Positions 2,786 to 8,788 of a DNA stretch of 15,005 bases are shown one piece after another. This stretch comes from a virus. The notes under the pieces were generated by a model. That model had not been told where the DNA came from and did no database searches. It worked only from the letters and a program-made list of their open reading frames with translations. The position numbers were made by a program, and so were the translations under genes. The DNA is taken from UHGV virus genome UHGV-2053560; one strand, written 5' to 3'. Positions within the stretch are counted from its first letter, which is position 1. Each line of letters starts with the position of its first letter.

Positions 2786-2967
2786 TGCTTGCCTCCTTTG
2801 CGCAACATCGCATTCAGATATTTGTTGTCATTAACAGAACCGAAACTCTTTCTCTTAAGCAATTCCTCTCTCGATGGCATTGGCTTTACGCGTTGGCGAA
2901 TAATCATTTCTGCCGGAAGAATTCCTGGATTGTATGCAAGTCCTCTCATGGTAAATTCCTCAGTCAT
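2782..2967 (-). CDS. Hypothetical small protein (61 aa)
   Basis: In-frame ATG at 2967 lies inside AATGACTGA, overlapping the stop of the upstream 97-aa gene (translational coupling). The ORF-track N-terminal extension to 3099 would overlap that gene by 140 nt and is rejected. Confidence 0.4.
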
Positions 2968-3253
2968 TACTGATAGCGCCATAGCGTGAGCGGTAATTAC
3001 GCAGGCGCGGGTCAATTTCAGGGAAGTGGGTATATGTGGCTTTGCGGAATGGTCGGATTGATGTCTGGTAAATTCGCTCGCGTTCTTCTTTCTCTGCAAG
3101 CCATATACAATGGCGAAATTCCTTTTCCTCTTTCGTTTCCTGCGGTAGCGACATTATCAGGTCGTAGTTTTTTCTGAATTTATCCAGCACCTCCGATACG
3201 GAATTGCCGGAACAGCGGCGCGGGTCATCCGCACCATACAGAGGCGCTGGCAT
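2960..3253 (-). CDS. Hypothetical protein (97 aa)
   Basis: ATG at 3253 preceded by AGGAGA; charged, helical-looking protein; first gene after ssb in the leftward operon. Confidence 0.55.
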
Positions 3254-3266
3254 GATTTTCTCCTGA

Positions 3267-3773
3267 TTAAATTGCGTGAATAGCGTGACGAGGGAAGGGG
3301 AGAGTTACTGGTGCAAAGGGTATATCGTCGTCAAAATCCATCGGAGGTTCGTTGTGTTGTGCTGGTGATGATTGCTGCTGTGGCTTCTGTGATTGCCTGC
3401 TGGCTGCTTGTTGTTTGCTGTCGCCAATGCCGCCAAGCATTTGCATCACGCCATTAATTCCGACATGAACCTCGGTTGTGTAACGGTCTTGTCCTGACTG
3501 GTCTTTCCACTTTCTGGTTCTCAGCATTCCCTCGAAATAAATCTGATCACCTTTTTTCACATACTGCCCCACGACCTCAGCCAGTTTCCCGGATACAGCA
3601 ACACGATGCCATTCAGTCAATTCCTTTTGCTCGCCAGTATTTTTATCTCGCCATTGTTCTGACGTGGCTATTGTCAGGTTAGCGAACGCTGTTCCTGATG
3701 GTGAGTATCGAACTTCCGGGTCTTGTCCTACCCGACCAAGGATAATCACCTTATTTACGCCTCTGCTTGCCAT
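3267..3773 (-). CDS. ssb: Single-stranded DNA-binding protein (SSB), with a 15-aa tail after the canonical DDDIPF
   Basis: N-terminal OB-fold signature [23 protein letters not shown], Gln/Pro-rich linker, acidic tip [10 protein letters not shown], then a further [15 protein letters not shown] before the TAA at 3267-3269. Confidence 0.9.
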
Positions 3774-4481
3774 TTATGCCGCCTGTTTTAGTTCGTTAAC
3801 TCTGATGTTCATTACCTGAACGCATTTAGCCTGCGCCTCCTCGTTGCCAGCCATTAATTGCCAGTCACGCTGATAACGCTCGATGAGTTTTTTCTTGTCA
3901 GTTTCTGTTGATGCATAATCGCTGAAGTCTTTCAGGATTTGTTCGCAGTCAACCGATGGAGATTTCTGGTTGGTATTTTCTGGTGATGGTTTGTTATCTG
4001 ATGCTGGGATTGCCCATCCCGGCAGCGATGGAGGGAGCCAGTAAAATCCTGTTCCATCCTTGAGTTTTGCCCTGTGCCATCCCTGCTTTTTATCGAGAGA
4101 TGTTTGTGCGAAACCTTCCTCAAGGTTATACAGATACCGACCGATTCCCCACTGAACGGCAGCGCGCTTCATTGCACCGGAACGACCACCTTTGACGGCT
4201 TCTACCTGCGTGTTTTCAGCAGCATCCCATTTGGTTACCCATTCGGAATCAATCTTGATTGATATGCCGCATTCAACTCCGCCGTTGTTGGGAATATCGC
4301 GGTATTCATTGCGCCATCCTGCTTTGCCGCAAACATCGTCCAGGCGCTTCATGATTGCCCGGTTCGTGACATAAGCCAGCACCATAGCCCACACCTTGCC
4401 ATCGCGTGTTTTACCGCTTTGCTGTATTCGCCATTCGATATCTTCAGGGCTGAATGGCTCATCGAATTTATTCAAATCCAT
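3774..4481 (-). CDS. Rad52/Rad22-family single-strand annealing protein (phage recombinase, Sak-like)
   Basis: 235 aa. Conserved core resembling Rad52_Rad22 (WRNEYRD...GGVECGISIKIDSEWVTKWD...KGGRSGAMKRAAVQWGIGRYLYNL). Its stop (3774-3776) abuts the ssb start (3773). Confidence 0.7.
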   Translation of the reverse strand: MDLNKFDEPFSPEDIEWRIQQSGKTRDGKVWAMVLAYVTNRAIMKRLDDVCGKAGWRNEYRDIPNNGGVECGISIKIDSEWVTKWDAAENTQVEAVKGGRSGAMKRAAVQWGIGRYLYNLEEGFAQTSLDKKQGWHRAKLKDGTGFYWLPPSLPGWAIPASDNKPSPENTNQKSPSVDCEQILKDFSDYASTETDKKKLIERYQRDWQLMAGNEEAQAKCVQVMNIRVNELKQAA

Positions 4482-4489
4482 AATTCACC

Positions 4490-4660
4490 TCAGAATGGAC
4501 ATGGCCCAAGGAAATAACGCTGATTTAATACTTCAGTCTTTGCCGCATTCAAAAATACGCGAACACCTTCACGATCTCCCTTCTGGCGATACATTAACGC
4601 CTGCTGCGTGTACATGCGCCTCTGTAACTTGCTCTCCTTCACTGTGGTTGCAAGTGACAT
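4490..4660 (-). CDS. Small hypothetical protein (56 aa)
   Basis: ATG at 4660 preceded by GAAGGAGA at good spacing; product MSLATTVKESKLQRRMYTQQALMYRQKGDREGVRVFLNAAKTEVLNQRYFLGPCPF. Below the 60-aa ORF-track cutoff, found by manual translation. Confidence 0.35.
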   Translation of the reverse strand: MSLATTVKESKLQRRMYTQQALMYRQKGDREGVRVFLNAAKTEVLNQRYFLGPCPF

Positions 4661-4739
4661 GAATATCTCCTTCGTTACCGATTAATTCTTTCATCTGACG
4701 AATGAATTCTTCGTCTGACCAGTTATCTGTAAAACTCAT
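4569..4739 (-). CDS. Small hypothetical protein (56 aa), in another frame overlapping 4490..4660
   Basis: ATG at 4739 overlaps the stop of the upstream kil-like gene (ATGA). N-terminal half MSFTDNWSDEEFIRQMKELIGNEGDIH looks protein-like; the C-terminal half overlaps the SD-preceded 56-aa ORF and may be out of frame. Confidence 0.3.
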   Translation of the reverse strand: MSFTDNWSDEEFIRQMKELIGNEGDIHVTCNHSEGEQVTEAHVHAAGVNVSPEGRS

Positions 4740-4888
4740 TTCCTGCGATACCATGGAAGGTTGATAGCTGATTTCATCGCTTTATTTGCTTCAAGCCACA
4801 TTTTTGAATCACCAATAAATCTGGCTATTACTGCTTTGTTTTGTGCCGCACGAAGCATCTGGTGATTAATGGCTATTTCATTGCGCAT
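4736..4888 (-). CDS. Kil-like small protein (50 aa), tentative
   Basis: ATG at 4888 preceded by GGAGG; product MRNEIAINHQMLRAAQNKAVIARFIGDSKMWLEANKAMKSAINLPWYRRK. Placed by synteny (directly downstream of the cIII-like gene, as kil is in lambda) and a motif I recall only loosely. Confidence 0.4.
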   Translation of the reverse strand: MRNEIAINHQMLRAAQNKAVIARFIGDSKMWLEANKAMKSAINLPWYRRK

Positions 4889-5007
4889 AACGCCTCCAGT
4901 TGTTTCTTTGCTGCTCTGATTAATTGTTTAACTCGGCGTGATAATTCAGATTCGTGCGGGTAGAAAGCGGACATGACGCCGCTACCCGCGAGCTGAAAGT
5001 GCATCAT
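4873..5007 (-). CDS. cIII: CIII-like small regulator (44 aa), tentative
   Basis: ATG-ATG at 5007 preceded by AAGGAG; product MMHFQLAGSGVMSAFYPHESELSRRVKQLIRAAKKQLEALCAMK has an amphipathic helix similar in pattern to lambda CIII (ESLLERITRKLR...). The ORF-track extension to 5112 runs through a terminator and is rejected. Confidence 0.45.
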   Translation of the reverse strand: MMHFQLAGSGVMSAFYPHESELSRRVKQLIRAAKKQLEALCAMK

Positions 5008-5070
5008 GGGTAACTCCTTATATTTGATTGCATAACGAAAACGCCTCGAGTGAAGCGTTATTGGTATGCA

Positions 5071-5097
5071 TATAAAAAGGCCCTCACACTGGAGGGC
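5071..5097 (-). terminator. Putative rho-independent terminator (tL-like) between the moron gene and the cIII-like gene
   Basis: Stem GCCCTC (5080-5085) / GAGGGC (5092-5097) with a 6-nt loop, followed on the minus strand by CTTTTTATAT. Confidence 0.4.
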
Positions 5098-5201
5098 AAA
5101 GAAGATTTCCAATAATCAGAACAAGTCGGCTCCTGTTTAGTTACGAGCGACATTGCTCCGTGTATTCACTCGTTGGAATGGATACACAGTGCTTATTCGT
5201 A

Positions 5202-5672
5202 CTAATAAAATACCCAATTTTCTGTTTCTTGGTTGTGTCCAAAGTTATATTCAATAACTGGTGTTGATGTATCAATATTTTTCATCCCATCAACAAGAGT
5301 TGATACAACAGCCAAATCTTGTTTTATTCTCATTAAATGGTATTTCTTCCGGCGCAATAAACTTTCAATAGCAAGTTTCTTCGTTGGGAATGCAAAAGAT
5401 CTTTCTGCATTTTTTGCTACTTTCTTAATTGCATATCTATTTCTCCTTTGTTTCCATTCCTGTAACCACTGATTTGGTGCTGGTTTAAAATTAACAACCC
5501 AATGCGCAGGAACCAACCATGCATAATGCTCTGTCTGATGAAAAGCTATATATTGAAGTGCGAATATTTTTATCCCATCTTCTTCAACTGTCGACTGGAA
5601 TCTCCAGAAAACAGGCATTCCATCATGTTCAGTTTCTGATTCAGGAAAAGGTACGCTCCATGATTTTGTCAT
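5202..5672 (-). CDS. Hypothetical protein (156 aa), AT-rich moron in the N-to-cIII interval
   Basis: ATG at 5672 preceded by GAGGTGAGAT; ends in TAG at 5202-5204. Visibly more AT-rich than the flanking genes. Non-repetitive soluble-looking protein; no family recognised. Confidence 0.6.
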   Translation of the reverse strand: MTKSWSVPFPESETEHDGMPVFWRFQSTVEEDGIKIFALQYIAFHQTEHYAWLVPAHWVVNFKPAPNQWLQEWKQRRNRYAIKKVAKNAERSFAFPTKKLAIESLLRRKKYHLMRIKQDLAVVSTLVDGMKNIDTSTPVIEYNFGHNQETENWVFY

Positions 5673-5726
5673 ATCTCACCTCAAATAAGTGGTTTGCTGC
5701 GAAAGTAAATCCGCTTAAGTTACCTG

Positions 5727-5864
5727 TTATTTATCCCACCAAGTTCCGTATCTATCTATCCAGTTACACCAATCATCGACACTCCATTTTGTTGTGTCGC
5801 ATTTTGGCAACTGGCATGAATATCTACCTTCTTTGTAAAGTCGGCGTTTGACTTTCTTGAGCAT
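5727..5864 (-). CDS. Small Cys/Trp-rich hypothetical protein (45 aa)
   Basis: ATG at 5864 preceded by GAGGTGAGCC, which overlaps the N stop codon. Product MLKKVKRRLYKEGRYSCQLPKCDTTKWSVDDWCNWIDRYGTWWDK (3 Cys, 5 Trp). Found by manual translation. Confidence 0.35.
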   Translation of the reverse strand: MLKKVKRRLYKEGRYSCQLPKCDTTKWSVDDWCNWIDRYGTWWDK

Positions 5865-5872
5865 GGCTCACC

Positions 5873-6205
5873 TCAATCGTAATAAGCTGGAATTGATTTT
5901 CCGCGTTGCTTCTGGCGGCCTGAGCATGTCACACCCATTTCACTGCGTGGCTTGCTGTACCATGTGCGCTGATTCTTGCGCTCAATACGTTGCAGGTTGC
6001 TTTCAATCTGTTCGTGGTATTCAGCCAGCACCGTAAGGTCTATCGGATTCAGTGCGCTTTCTACTCGTGATTTCGGTTTGCGATTCAGCGAGAGAATAGG
6101 GCGGTTAACTGGTTTTGCGCTTACCCCAACCAACAGGGGATTTGCTGCTTTCCATTGAGCCTGTTTCTCTGCGCGACGTTCGCGGCGGCGTGTTTGTGCA
6201 TCCAT
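5873..6205 (-). CDS. N: Antitermination protein N
   Basis: Product from ATG at 6205 begins MDAQTRRRERRAEKQAQWKAANPLLVGV, the arginine-rich motif of lambda N as I recall it. SD AGGAG upstream; nutL and pL lie immediately upstream on the same strand. Confidence 0.9.
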   Translation of the reverse strand: MDAQTRRRERRAEKQAQWKAANPLLVGVSAKPVNRPILSLNRKPKSRVESALNPIDLTVLAEYHEQIESNLQRIERKNQRTWYSKPRSEMGVTCSGRQKQRGKSIPAYYD

Positions 6206-6669: not shown

Positions 6670-7104
6670 TTATTCTTGTTCTCTGGTCAAATTATATAGT
6701 TGGAAAACAAGGATGCATATATGAATGAACGATGCAGAGGCAATGCCGATGGCGATAGTGGGTATCATGTAGCCGCTTATGCTGGAAAGAAGCAATAACC
6801 CGCAGAAAAACAAAGCTCCAAGCTCAACAAAACTAAGGGCATAGACAATAACTACCGATGTCATATACCCATACTCTCTAATCTTGGCCAGTCGGCGCGT
6901 TCTGCTTCCGATTAGAAACGTCAAGGCAGCAATCAGGATTGCAATCATGGTTCCTGCATATGATGACAATGTCGCCCCAAGACCATCTCTATGAGCTGAA
7001 AAAGAAACACCAGGAATGTAGTGGCGGAAAAGGAGATAGCAAATGCTTACGATAACGTAAGGAATTATTACTATGTAAACACCAGGCATGATTCTGTTCC
7101 GCAT
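6670..7104 (-). CDS. rexB: RexB, membrane component of the Rex abortive-infection/exclusion system
   Basis: 144 aa, multiple hydrophobic helices, directly downstream of rexA in the cI transcript. Size, position and sequence agree with lambda RexB as I recall it. Confidence 0.9.
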   Translation of the reverse strand: MRNRIMPGVYIVIIPYVIVSICYLLFRHYIPGVSFSAHRDGLGATLSSYAGTMIAILIAALTFLIGSRTRRLAKIREYGYMTSVVIVYALSFVELGALFFCGLLLLSSISGYMIPTIAIGIASASFIHICILVFQLYNLTREQE

Positions 7105-7119
7105 AATTACTCCTGATAA

Positions 7120-7959
7120 TTAATCCTTAACTTTGCCCACCTGCCTTTTAAAACATTCCAGTATATCACTTTTCATTCTTGCGTAGCAATATGCCATCTC
7201 TTCAGCTATCTCAGCATTGGTGACCTTGTTCAGAGGCGCTGAGAGATGGCCTTTTTCTGATAGATAATGTTCTGTTAAAATATCTCCGGCCTCATCTTTT
7301 GCCCGCAGGCTAATGTCTGAAAATTGAGGTGACGGGTTAAAAATAATATCCTTGGCAACCTTTTTTATATCCCTTTTAAATTTTGGCTTAATGACTATAT
7401 CCAATGAGTCAAAAAGCTCCCCTTCAATATCTGTTGCCCCTAAGACCTTTAATATATCGCCAAATACAGGTAGCTTGGCTTCTACCTTCACCGTTGTTCG
7501 GCCGATGAAATGCATATGCATAACATCGTCTTTGGTGGTTCCCCTCATCAGTGGCTCTATCTGAACGCGCTCTCCACTGCTTAATGACATTCCTTTCCCG
7601 ATTAAAAAATCTGTCAGATCGGATGTGGTCGGCCCGAAAACAGTTCTGGCAAAACCAATGGTGTCGCCTTCAACAAACAAAAAAGATGGGAATCCCAATG
7701 ATTCGTCATCTGCGAGGCTGTTCTTAATATCTTCAACTGAAGCTTTAGAGCGATTTATCTTCTGAACCAGACTCTTGTCATTTGTTTTGGTAAAGAGAAA
7801 AGTTTTTCCATCGATTTTATGAATATACAAATAATTGGAGCCAACCTGCAGGTGATGATTATCAGCCAGCAGAGAATTAAGGAAAACAGACAGGTTTATT
7901 GAGCGCTTATCTTTCCCTTTATTTTTGCTGCGGTAAGTCGCATAAAAACCATTCTTCAT
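7120..7959 (-). CDS. rexA: RexA, sensor/activator component of the Rex exclusion system
   Basis: 279 aa, immediately downstream of cI on the same strand. Size, position and N-terminus (MKNGFYATYRSKNKGKDKRS) agree with lambda RexA as I recall it. Confidence 0.9.
   Translation of the reverse strand: MKNGFYATYRSKNKGKDKRSINLSVFLNSLLADNHHLQVGSNYLYIHKIDGKTFLFTKTNDKSLVQKINRSKASVEDIKNSLADDESLGFPSFLFVEGDTIGFARTVFGPTTSDLTDFLIGKGMSLSSGERVQIEPLMRGTTKDDVMHMHFIGRTTVKVEAKLPVFGDILKVLGATDIEGELFDSLDIVIKPKFKRDIKKVAKDIIFNPSPQFSDISLRAKDEAGDILTEHYLSEKGHLSAPLNKVTNAEIAEEMAYCYARMKSDILECFKRQVGKVKD

Positions 7960-8071: not shown

Positions 8072-8788
<717 letters not shown>

Follow-up and report, generated by a model that had tools for sequence, protein, structure and literature searches.

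Lambdoid phages exchange genes at short conserved boundary sequences, and in phage lambda the interval between the antiterminator gene N and cIII holds sieB as well as the adjoining orf28 and ral, the latter encoding a modulator of type I restriction-modification. In the 15,005-nucleotide stretch of the virus genome UHGV-2053560 that we analyzed (the window), a lambdoid prophage with lambda immunity, the corresponding interval carries two open reading frames (ORFs) on the (-) strand directly downstream of a lambda-type N, namely a 45-residue ORF (5727-5864, hereafter orf45) and a 156-residue gene (5202-5672), just where the initial annotation of this DNA had placed them. That annotation regarded the two as an AT-rich two-gene moron with a possible exclusion or anti-defense function, in which the small protein might assist the larger one as a zinc-binding partner or as its regulator. 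Having compared the locus with its closest described relatives, we find that the interval is, as far as sequence can tell, made up of two unrelated single-gene accessory cargoes and not of one module; the 156-residue gene is evidently another copy of HK97 gp45 / 933W L0079, and orf45 is, by the same kind of comparison, Sf6 gp36. We are close to certain of these identities and of the architecture of the exchange slot described below.

The 156-residue gene (hereafter gp45-like) specifies a soluble, compact protein of 18.6 kDa with a pI of 9.3, which matches PHROG 1636, a family of 'unknown function', from end to end (residues 1-156 on profile positions 1-156, E 1.8e-110). By tblastn, the protein is 97.4% identical to HK97 gp45 and 98.1% identical to 933W L0079, and at the DNA level the gene is 98% identical to HK97 gene 45, 933W L0079, orf57 of Stx2 phage 86 and its counterparts in many Stx1- and Stx2-converting phages. 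It has in common with HK97 gp45, L0079 and orf57 the same ribosome-binding linker, the position after N and the downstream terminator; in the annotation of HK97 and 933W, this position is in the pL operon, after N and before the terminator preceding cIII or ea10. There are also differences, in that gp45 of HK97 and 933W directly follows their own, different N genes while the gene in the window follows orf45, and in that the neighbors in the window, lambda immunity (cI-rexAB) and a Rad52-type recombination module, are unlike those in HK97 and 933W. Among 5426 complete E. coli genomes, 2240 (41%) contain gp45 DNA, with as many as six copies each, and the gene goes by the name of 'hypothetical protein' or 'prophage protein' everywhere in the databases.

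Searches for a function of the gp45-like protein yielded no match in Pfam or NCBIfam, PHROG matches that were all to families of 'unknown function', and only a chance-level match to Cas1_II in PADLOC-DB 2.0 (E 0.019, 12 bits). In the literature, no paper was found on HK97 gp45, L0079 or PHROG 1636; papers on lambdoid early-left operons and accessory-gene screens covered neither of the two genes, and both sequences were absent from supplementary files of an accessory-gene screen. The remark in the initial annotation that neither protein is recognizable is borne out, with the gp45-like protein lacking Pfam and NCBIfam matches, orf45 matching only a domain of unknown function (DUF5484) and the relatives of both being uncharacterized. 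Calling them undescribed is right insofar as no published function was found, but the proteins have long been catalogued as hypothetical ones (HK97 gp45, 933W L0079, Sf6 gp36, T4 55.4). The sequence element is thus already known, sits in a known variable interval and is unsurprising to a specialist of lambdoid phages.

As had been proposed from its letters alone, the gp45-like gene is AT-rich against its neighbors and foreign in composition, with a GC content of 0.352 and a GC3 of 0.255 (the lowest among 21 genes measured) vs. a GC content of 0.472 for the window, and the low-GC stretch coincides with the ORF. Upstream, the gene is preceded by a 31-nt linker, GCAGCAAACCACTTATTTGAGGTGAGATATG (5670-5700, (-) strand, unique in the window), which comprises the intergenic sequence, the Shine-Dalgarno sequence and the start codon. 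The sequences of the window, HK97, Sf6 and mEpX1 agree in every letter of this linker and cease to be homologous immediately after the ATG. An exact-match scan of IMG/VR for the linker, in which the cargo was translated from the linker ATG, returned at least 120 contigs and at least 10 different ORFs; among the matches listed, the cargo was gp45-like in 54 copies, a 28-residue acidic peptide MEEEFEEFEEHPQDVMEQYQDYPYDYDY in about 40, an 83-residue ORF in 10, a 107-residue ORF in 5, a predicted membrane protein of 121/149 residues in 4, a 60-residue ORF in 3 and four singletons. The 28-residue peptide is the product of lambda orf28 (lambda 34271-34357), which overlaps the start of ral and is preceded in lambda by a divergent version of the linker; it is very acidic, highly conserved (PHROG 16060), the second commonest cargo, and unannotated in Sf6, and it might act as a partner of ral or resemble a DNA mimic. 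Cargoes other than gp45-like and lambda orf28 belong to PHROG families of 'unknown function' or are orphans. Given that homology breaks exactly after the ATG and that at least 10 unrelated cargoes follow, the linker acts as a precise gene-swap junction and is the upstream recombination boundary. The presence of different genes at the same start codon in different phages shows that cargo is exchanged by recombination in conserved flanks, and the annotation of Sf6 marks boundary sequences nearby. Nor is the gp45-like gene tied to any one backbone, as it occurs freely with various types of N and various recombination modules and immunity regions.

On its downstream side, the slot is bounded by a strongly structured 3' flank (5098-5197, (-) strand), which lambda also has just downstream of ral and which might have a part in RNA processing or stability within the tL2 cluster. 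From about 5197 to 5070, the window is ~98% identical to lambda DNA at that place, with the terminator hairpin included; the flank contains two strong hairpins, the RNA fold z-score for 5040-5205 is -3.9, and no Rfam family was found in the window. The hairpin terminator that had been pointed out ahead of cIII is indeed present at 5071-5097 (-) and is a good intrinsic terminator of the tL2a type, with the stem GCCCTCCAGTGTGAGGGC at 5097-5080 followed by the T-tract CTTTTTAT; its homologues are annotated as 'putative terminator' in HK97 and as the tL2A homologue in Sf6. A second terminator-like hairpin (AACGCTTCACTCGAGGCGTT followed by TTCGTT; 5040-5059, (-) strand), also seen in the RNA fold, lies just before the ribosome-binding site of cIII. 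Since the terminator and the ~120 nt upstream of it are ~98% lambda-like, they belong to the phage backbone rather than to the cargo, and the notion of a cassette that ends in a terminator of its own does not stand. With the ORF bounded by the conserved linker on one side and the lambda-type flank on the other, the foreign AT-rich DNA amounts almost exactly to the ORF.

Seen against lambda, the cargo in the window takes the position of orf28-ral: the slot is the same, a diverged linker precedes orf28 and ~98% identical sequence follows ral. Together with the variety of ORFs found behind the linker, this confirms that the interval from N to cIII is a swap site for accessory genes; the 680-bp interval of lambda between N and orf28, which holds sieB, has no counterpart in the window. 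The products of orf28-ral and gp45 are alike in being small and soluble, and gp45 would, like orf28-ral, be expressed early from pL, but Ral bears no sequence similarity to either of the two proteins (Pfam at E <= 1, PHROGs). In E. coli GF66.2, where N, orf45, orf28/ral, gp45 and the flank stand in tandem, ral is a separate gene adjacent to gp45, and the ribosome-binding site of gp45 (ATTATTTGAGGTGAGATATG) interrupts what in lambda is the sequence after ral. Cassettes can thus be lined up one after another in the slot, and gp45 is not simply an alternative to Ral.

The smaller of the two genes, orf45 (GC 0.399), encodes a Trp-rich basic protein with a pI of 9.4 that is 100% identical in amino acid sequence to the protein of gene 36 of Shigella phage Sf6, which lies at the same place, immediately after a lambda-type N, and is annotated there as 'similar to T4 Orf55.4'. 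The protein belongs to PHROG 1871 and to Pfam DUF5484 (46.7 bits against a cut-off of 27, E 2.6e-12), and tblastn found matches in 1037 phage records, mostly T4-like phages of Escherichia, Klebsiella, Shigella and Yersinia at ~50% identity. A conserved Trp-rich motif, TTKWSVxDW...ID..G.WW, runs through both lambdoid and T4-type members, making DUF5484 a lambdoid early gene in common with the T-even phages. In T4-like phages the 55.4 gene is found in the early/middle cluster from nrdG to gene 55, and in the T4-like phage Shinka a DUF5484 gene is one of a series of small DUF genes flanked on one side by the genes for anaerobic ribonucleotide reductase and on the other by gene 55, which encodes the late sigma factor. 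We found no paper on DUF5484, gp55.4 being mentioned once in the literature as a transcript in a T2 RNA-seq list, and orf45 has no match in PADLOC-DB 2.0. Judging from this conservation, orf45 is a real and conserved small protein, retained as an ORF in related phages, and it probably has a small early function of its own, which T-even phages would share.

The proposal that the small protein is a zinc-binding partner of the larger one fares poorly in this comparison. Lambdoid orf45 has three cysteines whereas T4-type 55.4 members do not, and the T4-type homologue MNIKRMLFKQGLYTLNVTPKGDTTKWSVNDWIKFIDENGNWWEI contains neither Cys nor His; as the three lambdoid cysteines are not features of the family, zinc binding is not supported. 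Nor do the two genes travel together, as evidenced by: 1) HK97 and 933W carry gp45 without orf45; 2) Sf6 (N-gp36-ral-gp34) and mEpX1 (N-Nun-gp36-like-60-aa ORF) carry orf45 without gp45; 3) among the complete E. coli genomes, gp45 DNA is present in 2240 and orf45 DNA in 146, with one continuous match to at least 80% of an 851-bp query spanning both genes in only 45; 4) among the IMG/VR matches listed, orf45 stands upstream of 5 of 48 gp45 copies and also upstream of four other types of cargo. The physical link of orf45 is instead with the 3' end of the lambda/Sf6-type N, with which it is contiguous, and N 3' end and orf45 are identical in the window, Sf6 and mEpX1. Because the DNA at the 3' end of N is identical among the three over the aligned stretch, we place the junction with orf45 inside the end of N.

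That the two ORFs nonetheless form one functional module, with the small protein as zinc partner or regulator of the larger, could draw on their adjacency, on the same arrangement in E. coli Nord1, phage Bas106 and those ~45 complete E. coli genomes, and on their ribosome-binding regions, which are near-identical as the initial annotation had observed. The 10-mer TTGAGGTGAG occurs only twice in the window (5675-5684 and 5867-5876), in front of the two ORFs and in both cases with 2 nt between its end and the ATG; the chance expectation is 0.02. However, 7 of its 10 bases (GAGGTGA) are a strong Shine-Dalgarno sequence, and the Shine-Dalgarno core of orf45 (5867-5876, (-) strand) overlaps the TGA stop codon of N. 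With the core mostly Shine-Dalgarno consensus and the upstream TGA supplied by the N stop, this resemblance says little about co-regulation. Since each gene is also far commoner without the other and the cysteines are missing from the T4-type homologue, we regard a functional pairing of the two proteins as hardly credible.

It could also be argued that both genes are near-neutral passengers, spread by way of recombination-prone conserved flanks in a slot that evidently exchanges many unrelated, uncharacterized ORFs. Against this stands the conservation of gp45, with all 55 of 55 copies intact as 156-codon ORFs; their 36 nucleotide alleles contain 23 synonymous and 28 nonsynonymous variant codons, and the ratio of nonsynonymous to synonymous changes per site, ~0.29, indicates purifying selection. 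Close homologues, confined to Enterobacterales (E. coli, Pectobacterium, Cronobacter, Brenneria and Rosenbergiella), are 54-97% identical with 40 invariant positions, a wider superfamily appears to have in common a confidently predicted fold (see below), and orf45 for its part is conserved from lambdoid to T4-like phages. In view of these features, neutral carriage strikes us as very improbable.

With respect to transcription, a crude consensus scan, which may miss weak promoters, found no sigma-70-like promoter on the coding strand between 5673 and 5870, and its sole match was a weak 9/12 site inside the gp45-like gene. A weak promoter-like site on the other strand, over the 3' end of gp45 (5183-5211 (+), TACACA-17-TAAAAT, 9/12), is probably due to chance, the count of such sites being not above that of shuffled sequence. 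The first predicted intrinsic terminator after N is the one at 5097-5080. Both genes are thus most simply read as pL-driven early genes that would be silent under cI repression and, lying upstream of this terminator, they may be N-independent. In keeping with the lack of a detected promoter, we view the gp45-like gene as a cargo gene inside the pL operon rather than as a classical moron; of the moron proposal, the foreign composition and the variable interval stand, while the terminator belongs to the backbone and a promoter of its own was not found. The comparison with SieB and with classical lambdoid morons such as HK97 gp15 goes the same way, as these are likewise accessory, non-essential and compositionally foreign genes in a known variable interval, but the gp45-like gene differs from them in having no detected promoter, no membrane segment, no match to SieB in Pfam and a terminator that is shared backbone. 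For both proteins, Pfam and PHROGs gave no match to the SieB family.

These observations bear on whether the gp45-like protein, alone or together with orf45, is expressed from the prophage and protects the lysogen by superinfection exclusion or abortive infection, as a functional analogue of SieB or RexAB. The idea is in line with the presence of sieB in the same interval of lambda, with an AT-richness like that of many lysogenic-conversion morons, with the occurrence of gp45, often in several copies, in 41% of complete E. coli genomes, and with the predicted membrane protein among the alternative cargoes of the slot. Nevertheless, as the scan detected no separate promoter, the gene should be shut off by cI; the Kyte-Doolittle hydropathy of the protein peaks at 0.6 over 19 residues, which leaves no transmembrane segment, and PADLOC gave no match; homologues are present in virulent phages, for which there is no lysogen in need of protection; and the prophage already carries rexAB. 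We therefore deem a role in exclusion unlikely.

Structure prediction adds a fold to this picture. A first AlphaFold2 (AF2) model of the gp45-like protein, built from 22 close sequences, was poor (pLDDT 65), and we have used a second one based on 90 sequences (pLDDT 95, pTM 0.82). The model predicts an N-terminal sheet of long antiparallel strands (19-30, 33-46 and 50-55), two short helices, a strand at 83-86, a 33-residue helix at 98-130 and an ordered C-terminal tail with a conserved YNFGHNxETExWxF motif; residues 57-131 carry a net charge of +13 whereas both termini are acidic. Foldseek returned no match of the model in the Protein Data Bank (PDB), and sequence searches of the PDB with the single protein and with the 90-sequence profile gave nothing better than E > 0.1. 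A fold of the AP2 or lambda Int arm-type DNA-binding class, considered because of an RFAFxTKEEA-like motif, was rejected (hhalign probability <1%). By contrast with the PDB, a profile search of 1.84 billion representatives returned 87 proteins at E <= 1e-3, mostly 130-155 residues long and aligned over most of their length, and BFVD gave 12 matches at E < 1e-3, all to uncharacterized phage proteins (from Erwinia phage phiEa2809, Achromobacter phage phiAxp-3, Delftia phage RG-2014, and Sinorhizobium, Rhizobium, Tenacibaculum and Cellulophaga phages). One candidate, P0066, a protein of 940 residues with 7 matched stretches, was dismissed as spurious, being a low-complexity DUF11/DUF7507 repeat protein. 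Pfam searches on 41 distant family members gave chance matches only. On the strength of the model, no solved structure is related in fold to the gp45-like protein, and all of its relatives come from phages.

Superfamily members are found in both virulent and temperate phages. In the seven contigs that were looked up, the distant homologues sit in arrays of small hypothetical early or accessory genes, with no recurrent neighbor. In Vibrio phage PvVp04 the homologue directly follows a gene for a Cro-like helix-turn-helix (HTH) protein and precedes pRha and replication genes, in the Pantoea myovirus LIET2 it lies near a cytosine methyltransferase, and other homologues occur in several metagenomic phages. 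As the distant members lie in early arrays of virulent and temperate phages alike, it is during lytic growth, within the infected cell, that the protein most likely acts.

One way to account for such a protein is a small basic nucleic-acid-binding factor that serves the early program of the phage itself rather than acting on host immunity, for instance as a recombination or replication accessory, a regulator of transcription or RNA, or a modulator of the lysis-lysogeny decision. The strongly positive central region with its long helix, the setting of the Vibrio phage homologue, the proximity of the gene in the window to cIII, kil and the recombination module, and the spread of the family over virulent and temperate phages would all be compatible with this role. 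On the other hand, the gene is dispensable at the level of the family, given that lambda, Sf6 and mEpX1 lack gp45 and have other cargo in the slot; it combines freely with backbones that differ in N type, recombination module and immunity region; and no known DNA-binding domain was recognized in Pfam or in the hhalign comparison with AP2 and the lambda Int arm domain. We surmise that a phage-internal function, though clearly the less favored, is a possibility to be taken seriously.

The reading that we prefer is that the gp45-like protein is a soluble early lytic-cycle factor for counter-defense or host takeover. Given the lack of a detectable promoter and its place between N and the first predicted terminator, the gene would probably be expressed from pL very early, the protein being made after infection or induction and absent from the repressed lysogen, and it might then bind and neutralize a host target associated with nucleic acid. 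Our reasons for looking toward counter-defense are the predicted early expression from pL, the soluble and basic nature of the protein, the slot that it shares with ral, an anti-restriction gene, and its adjacency to ral, the finding of family members among the early genes of virulent phages, the free recombination with different backbones and the dispensability at family level. Several points weigh against it. Neither homology nor experiment ties either of the two proteins to defense or counter-defense, and PADLOC, Pfam and NCBIfam are silent on the gp45-like protein. That gp45 lies beside ral or in its stead is an argument from location only, and the other cargoes found there are equally uncharacterized; gp45 co-occurs with ral and so is not simply a substitute for it; and the basic helix could equally serve a phage-internal role with DNA or RNA. 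The timing, too, calls for caution, because our scan for terminators, which does not extend to Rho-dependent ones, found none in lambda's own interval between N and orf28, where tL1 presumably lies, and immediate-early expression is accordingly no more than a supposition. Weighing all this, we postulate the counter-defense or host-takeover role tentatively, at somewhat less than even odds, and for the explanation as a whole, as a compromise between the figures for identity and architecture and for mechanism, we would put the probability at roughly 0.5.

The remainder of the window provides the setting for this slot. An integrase gene is found at the left end, and towards the right are cro, cII, O, a DnaB-like helicase gene, NinB and NinG. 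On the (-) strand, the immunity region contains cI (8072-8785), rexA (7120-7959) and rexB (6670-7104), followed by the lambda pL/OL region (6462-6434, TTGACA-17-GATACT), which drives N. The antiterminator gene N itself (5873-6205, (-) strand) is of the lambda/Sf6 type (Pfam N36, E 2.5e-26; PHROG 271) and is annotated as N in E. coli Nord1 and Sf6. Its true start is at 6205 (MDAQTRRRERR) and its stop at 5873, the 136-residue ORF listed from 6283 being an upstream extension. The protein is lambda-like except for its C-terminal end, which reads RGKSIPAYYD and differs from that of lambda N, which we take to be KGKSIPLI.

The next backbone gene beyond the slot is cIII (4873-5007, (-) strand; Pfam cIII, E 7.8e-30), and past it the (-) strand carries kil, two small HK97-type 'recombinase' ORFs and genes for a Rad52-type annealing protein, a single-stranded DNA-binding protein (SSB) and Abc2. 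The two small ORFs overlap (4490-4660 and 4569-4754) and are homologues of HK97 gp42/42.1, and the recombination module comprises the anti-RecBCD protein Abc2, SSB and the Rad52-family annealing protein. The backbone is thus a mosaic in which lambda immunity (cI, rexAB, pL, N) is joined to a recombination module of the P22/HK97 style (2960-4754, (-) strand).

Taken by itself, the locus adds one more copy of two catalogued hypothetical phage genes and changes nothing, and the proposal of a paired module can be dropped, which saves experimental effort. Nevertheless, gp45/L0079 is among the most widespread uncharacterized genes in the early-left operon of E. coli prophages, and it makes a reasonable candidate for a functional screen, being prevalent and conserved, with a predicted fold to which no solved structure is related. 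The slot is sharply bounded and shared with ral, and its 31-nt linker provides a handle for harvesting candidate early accessory genes. We further entertain, as a rather doubtful extension, that the phage-only gp45/L0079 superfamily (~87 representative clusters) constitutes a new early family for counter-defense or host takeover, with the slot from N to tL2a as an 'anti-defense cassette site'. If this were true, HK97, most Stx-converting phages and ~40% of E. coli genomes would possess a member of such a family, and the ~10 other cargoes of the slot, including the acidic 28-residue product of lambda orf28, may prove to be further inhibitors.

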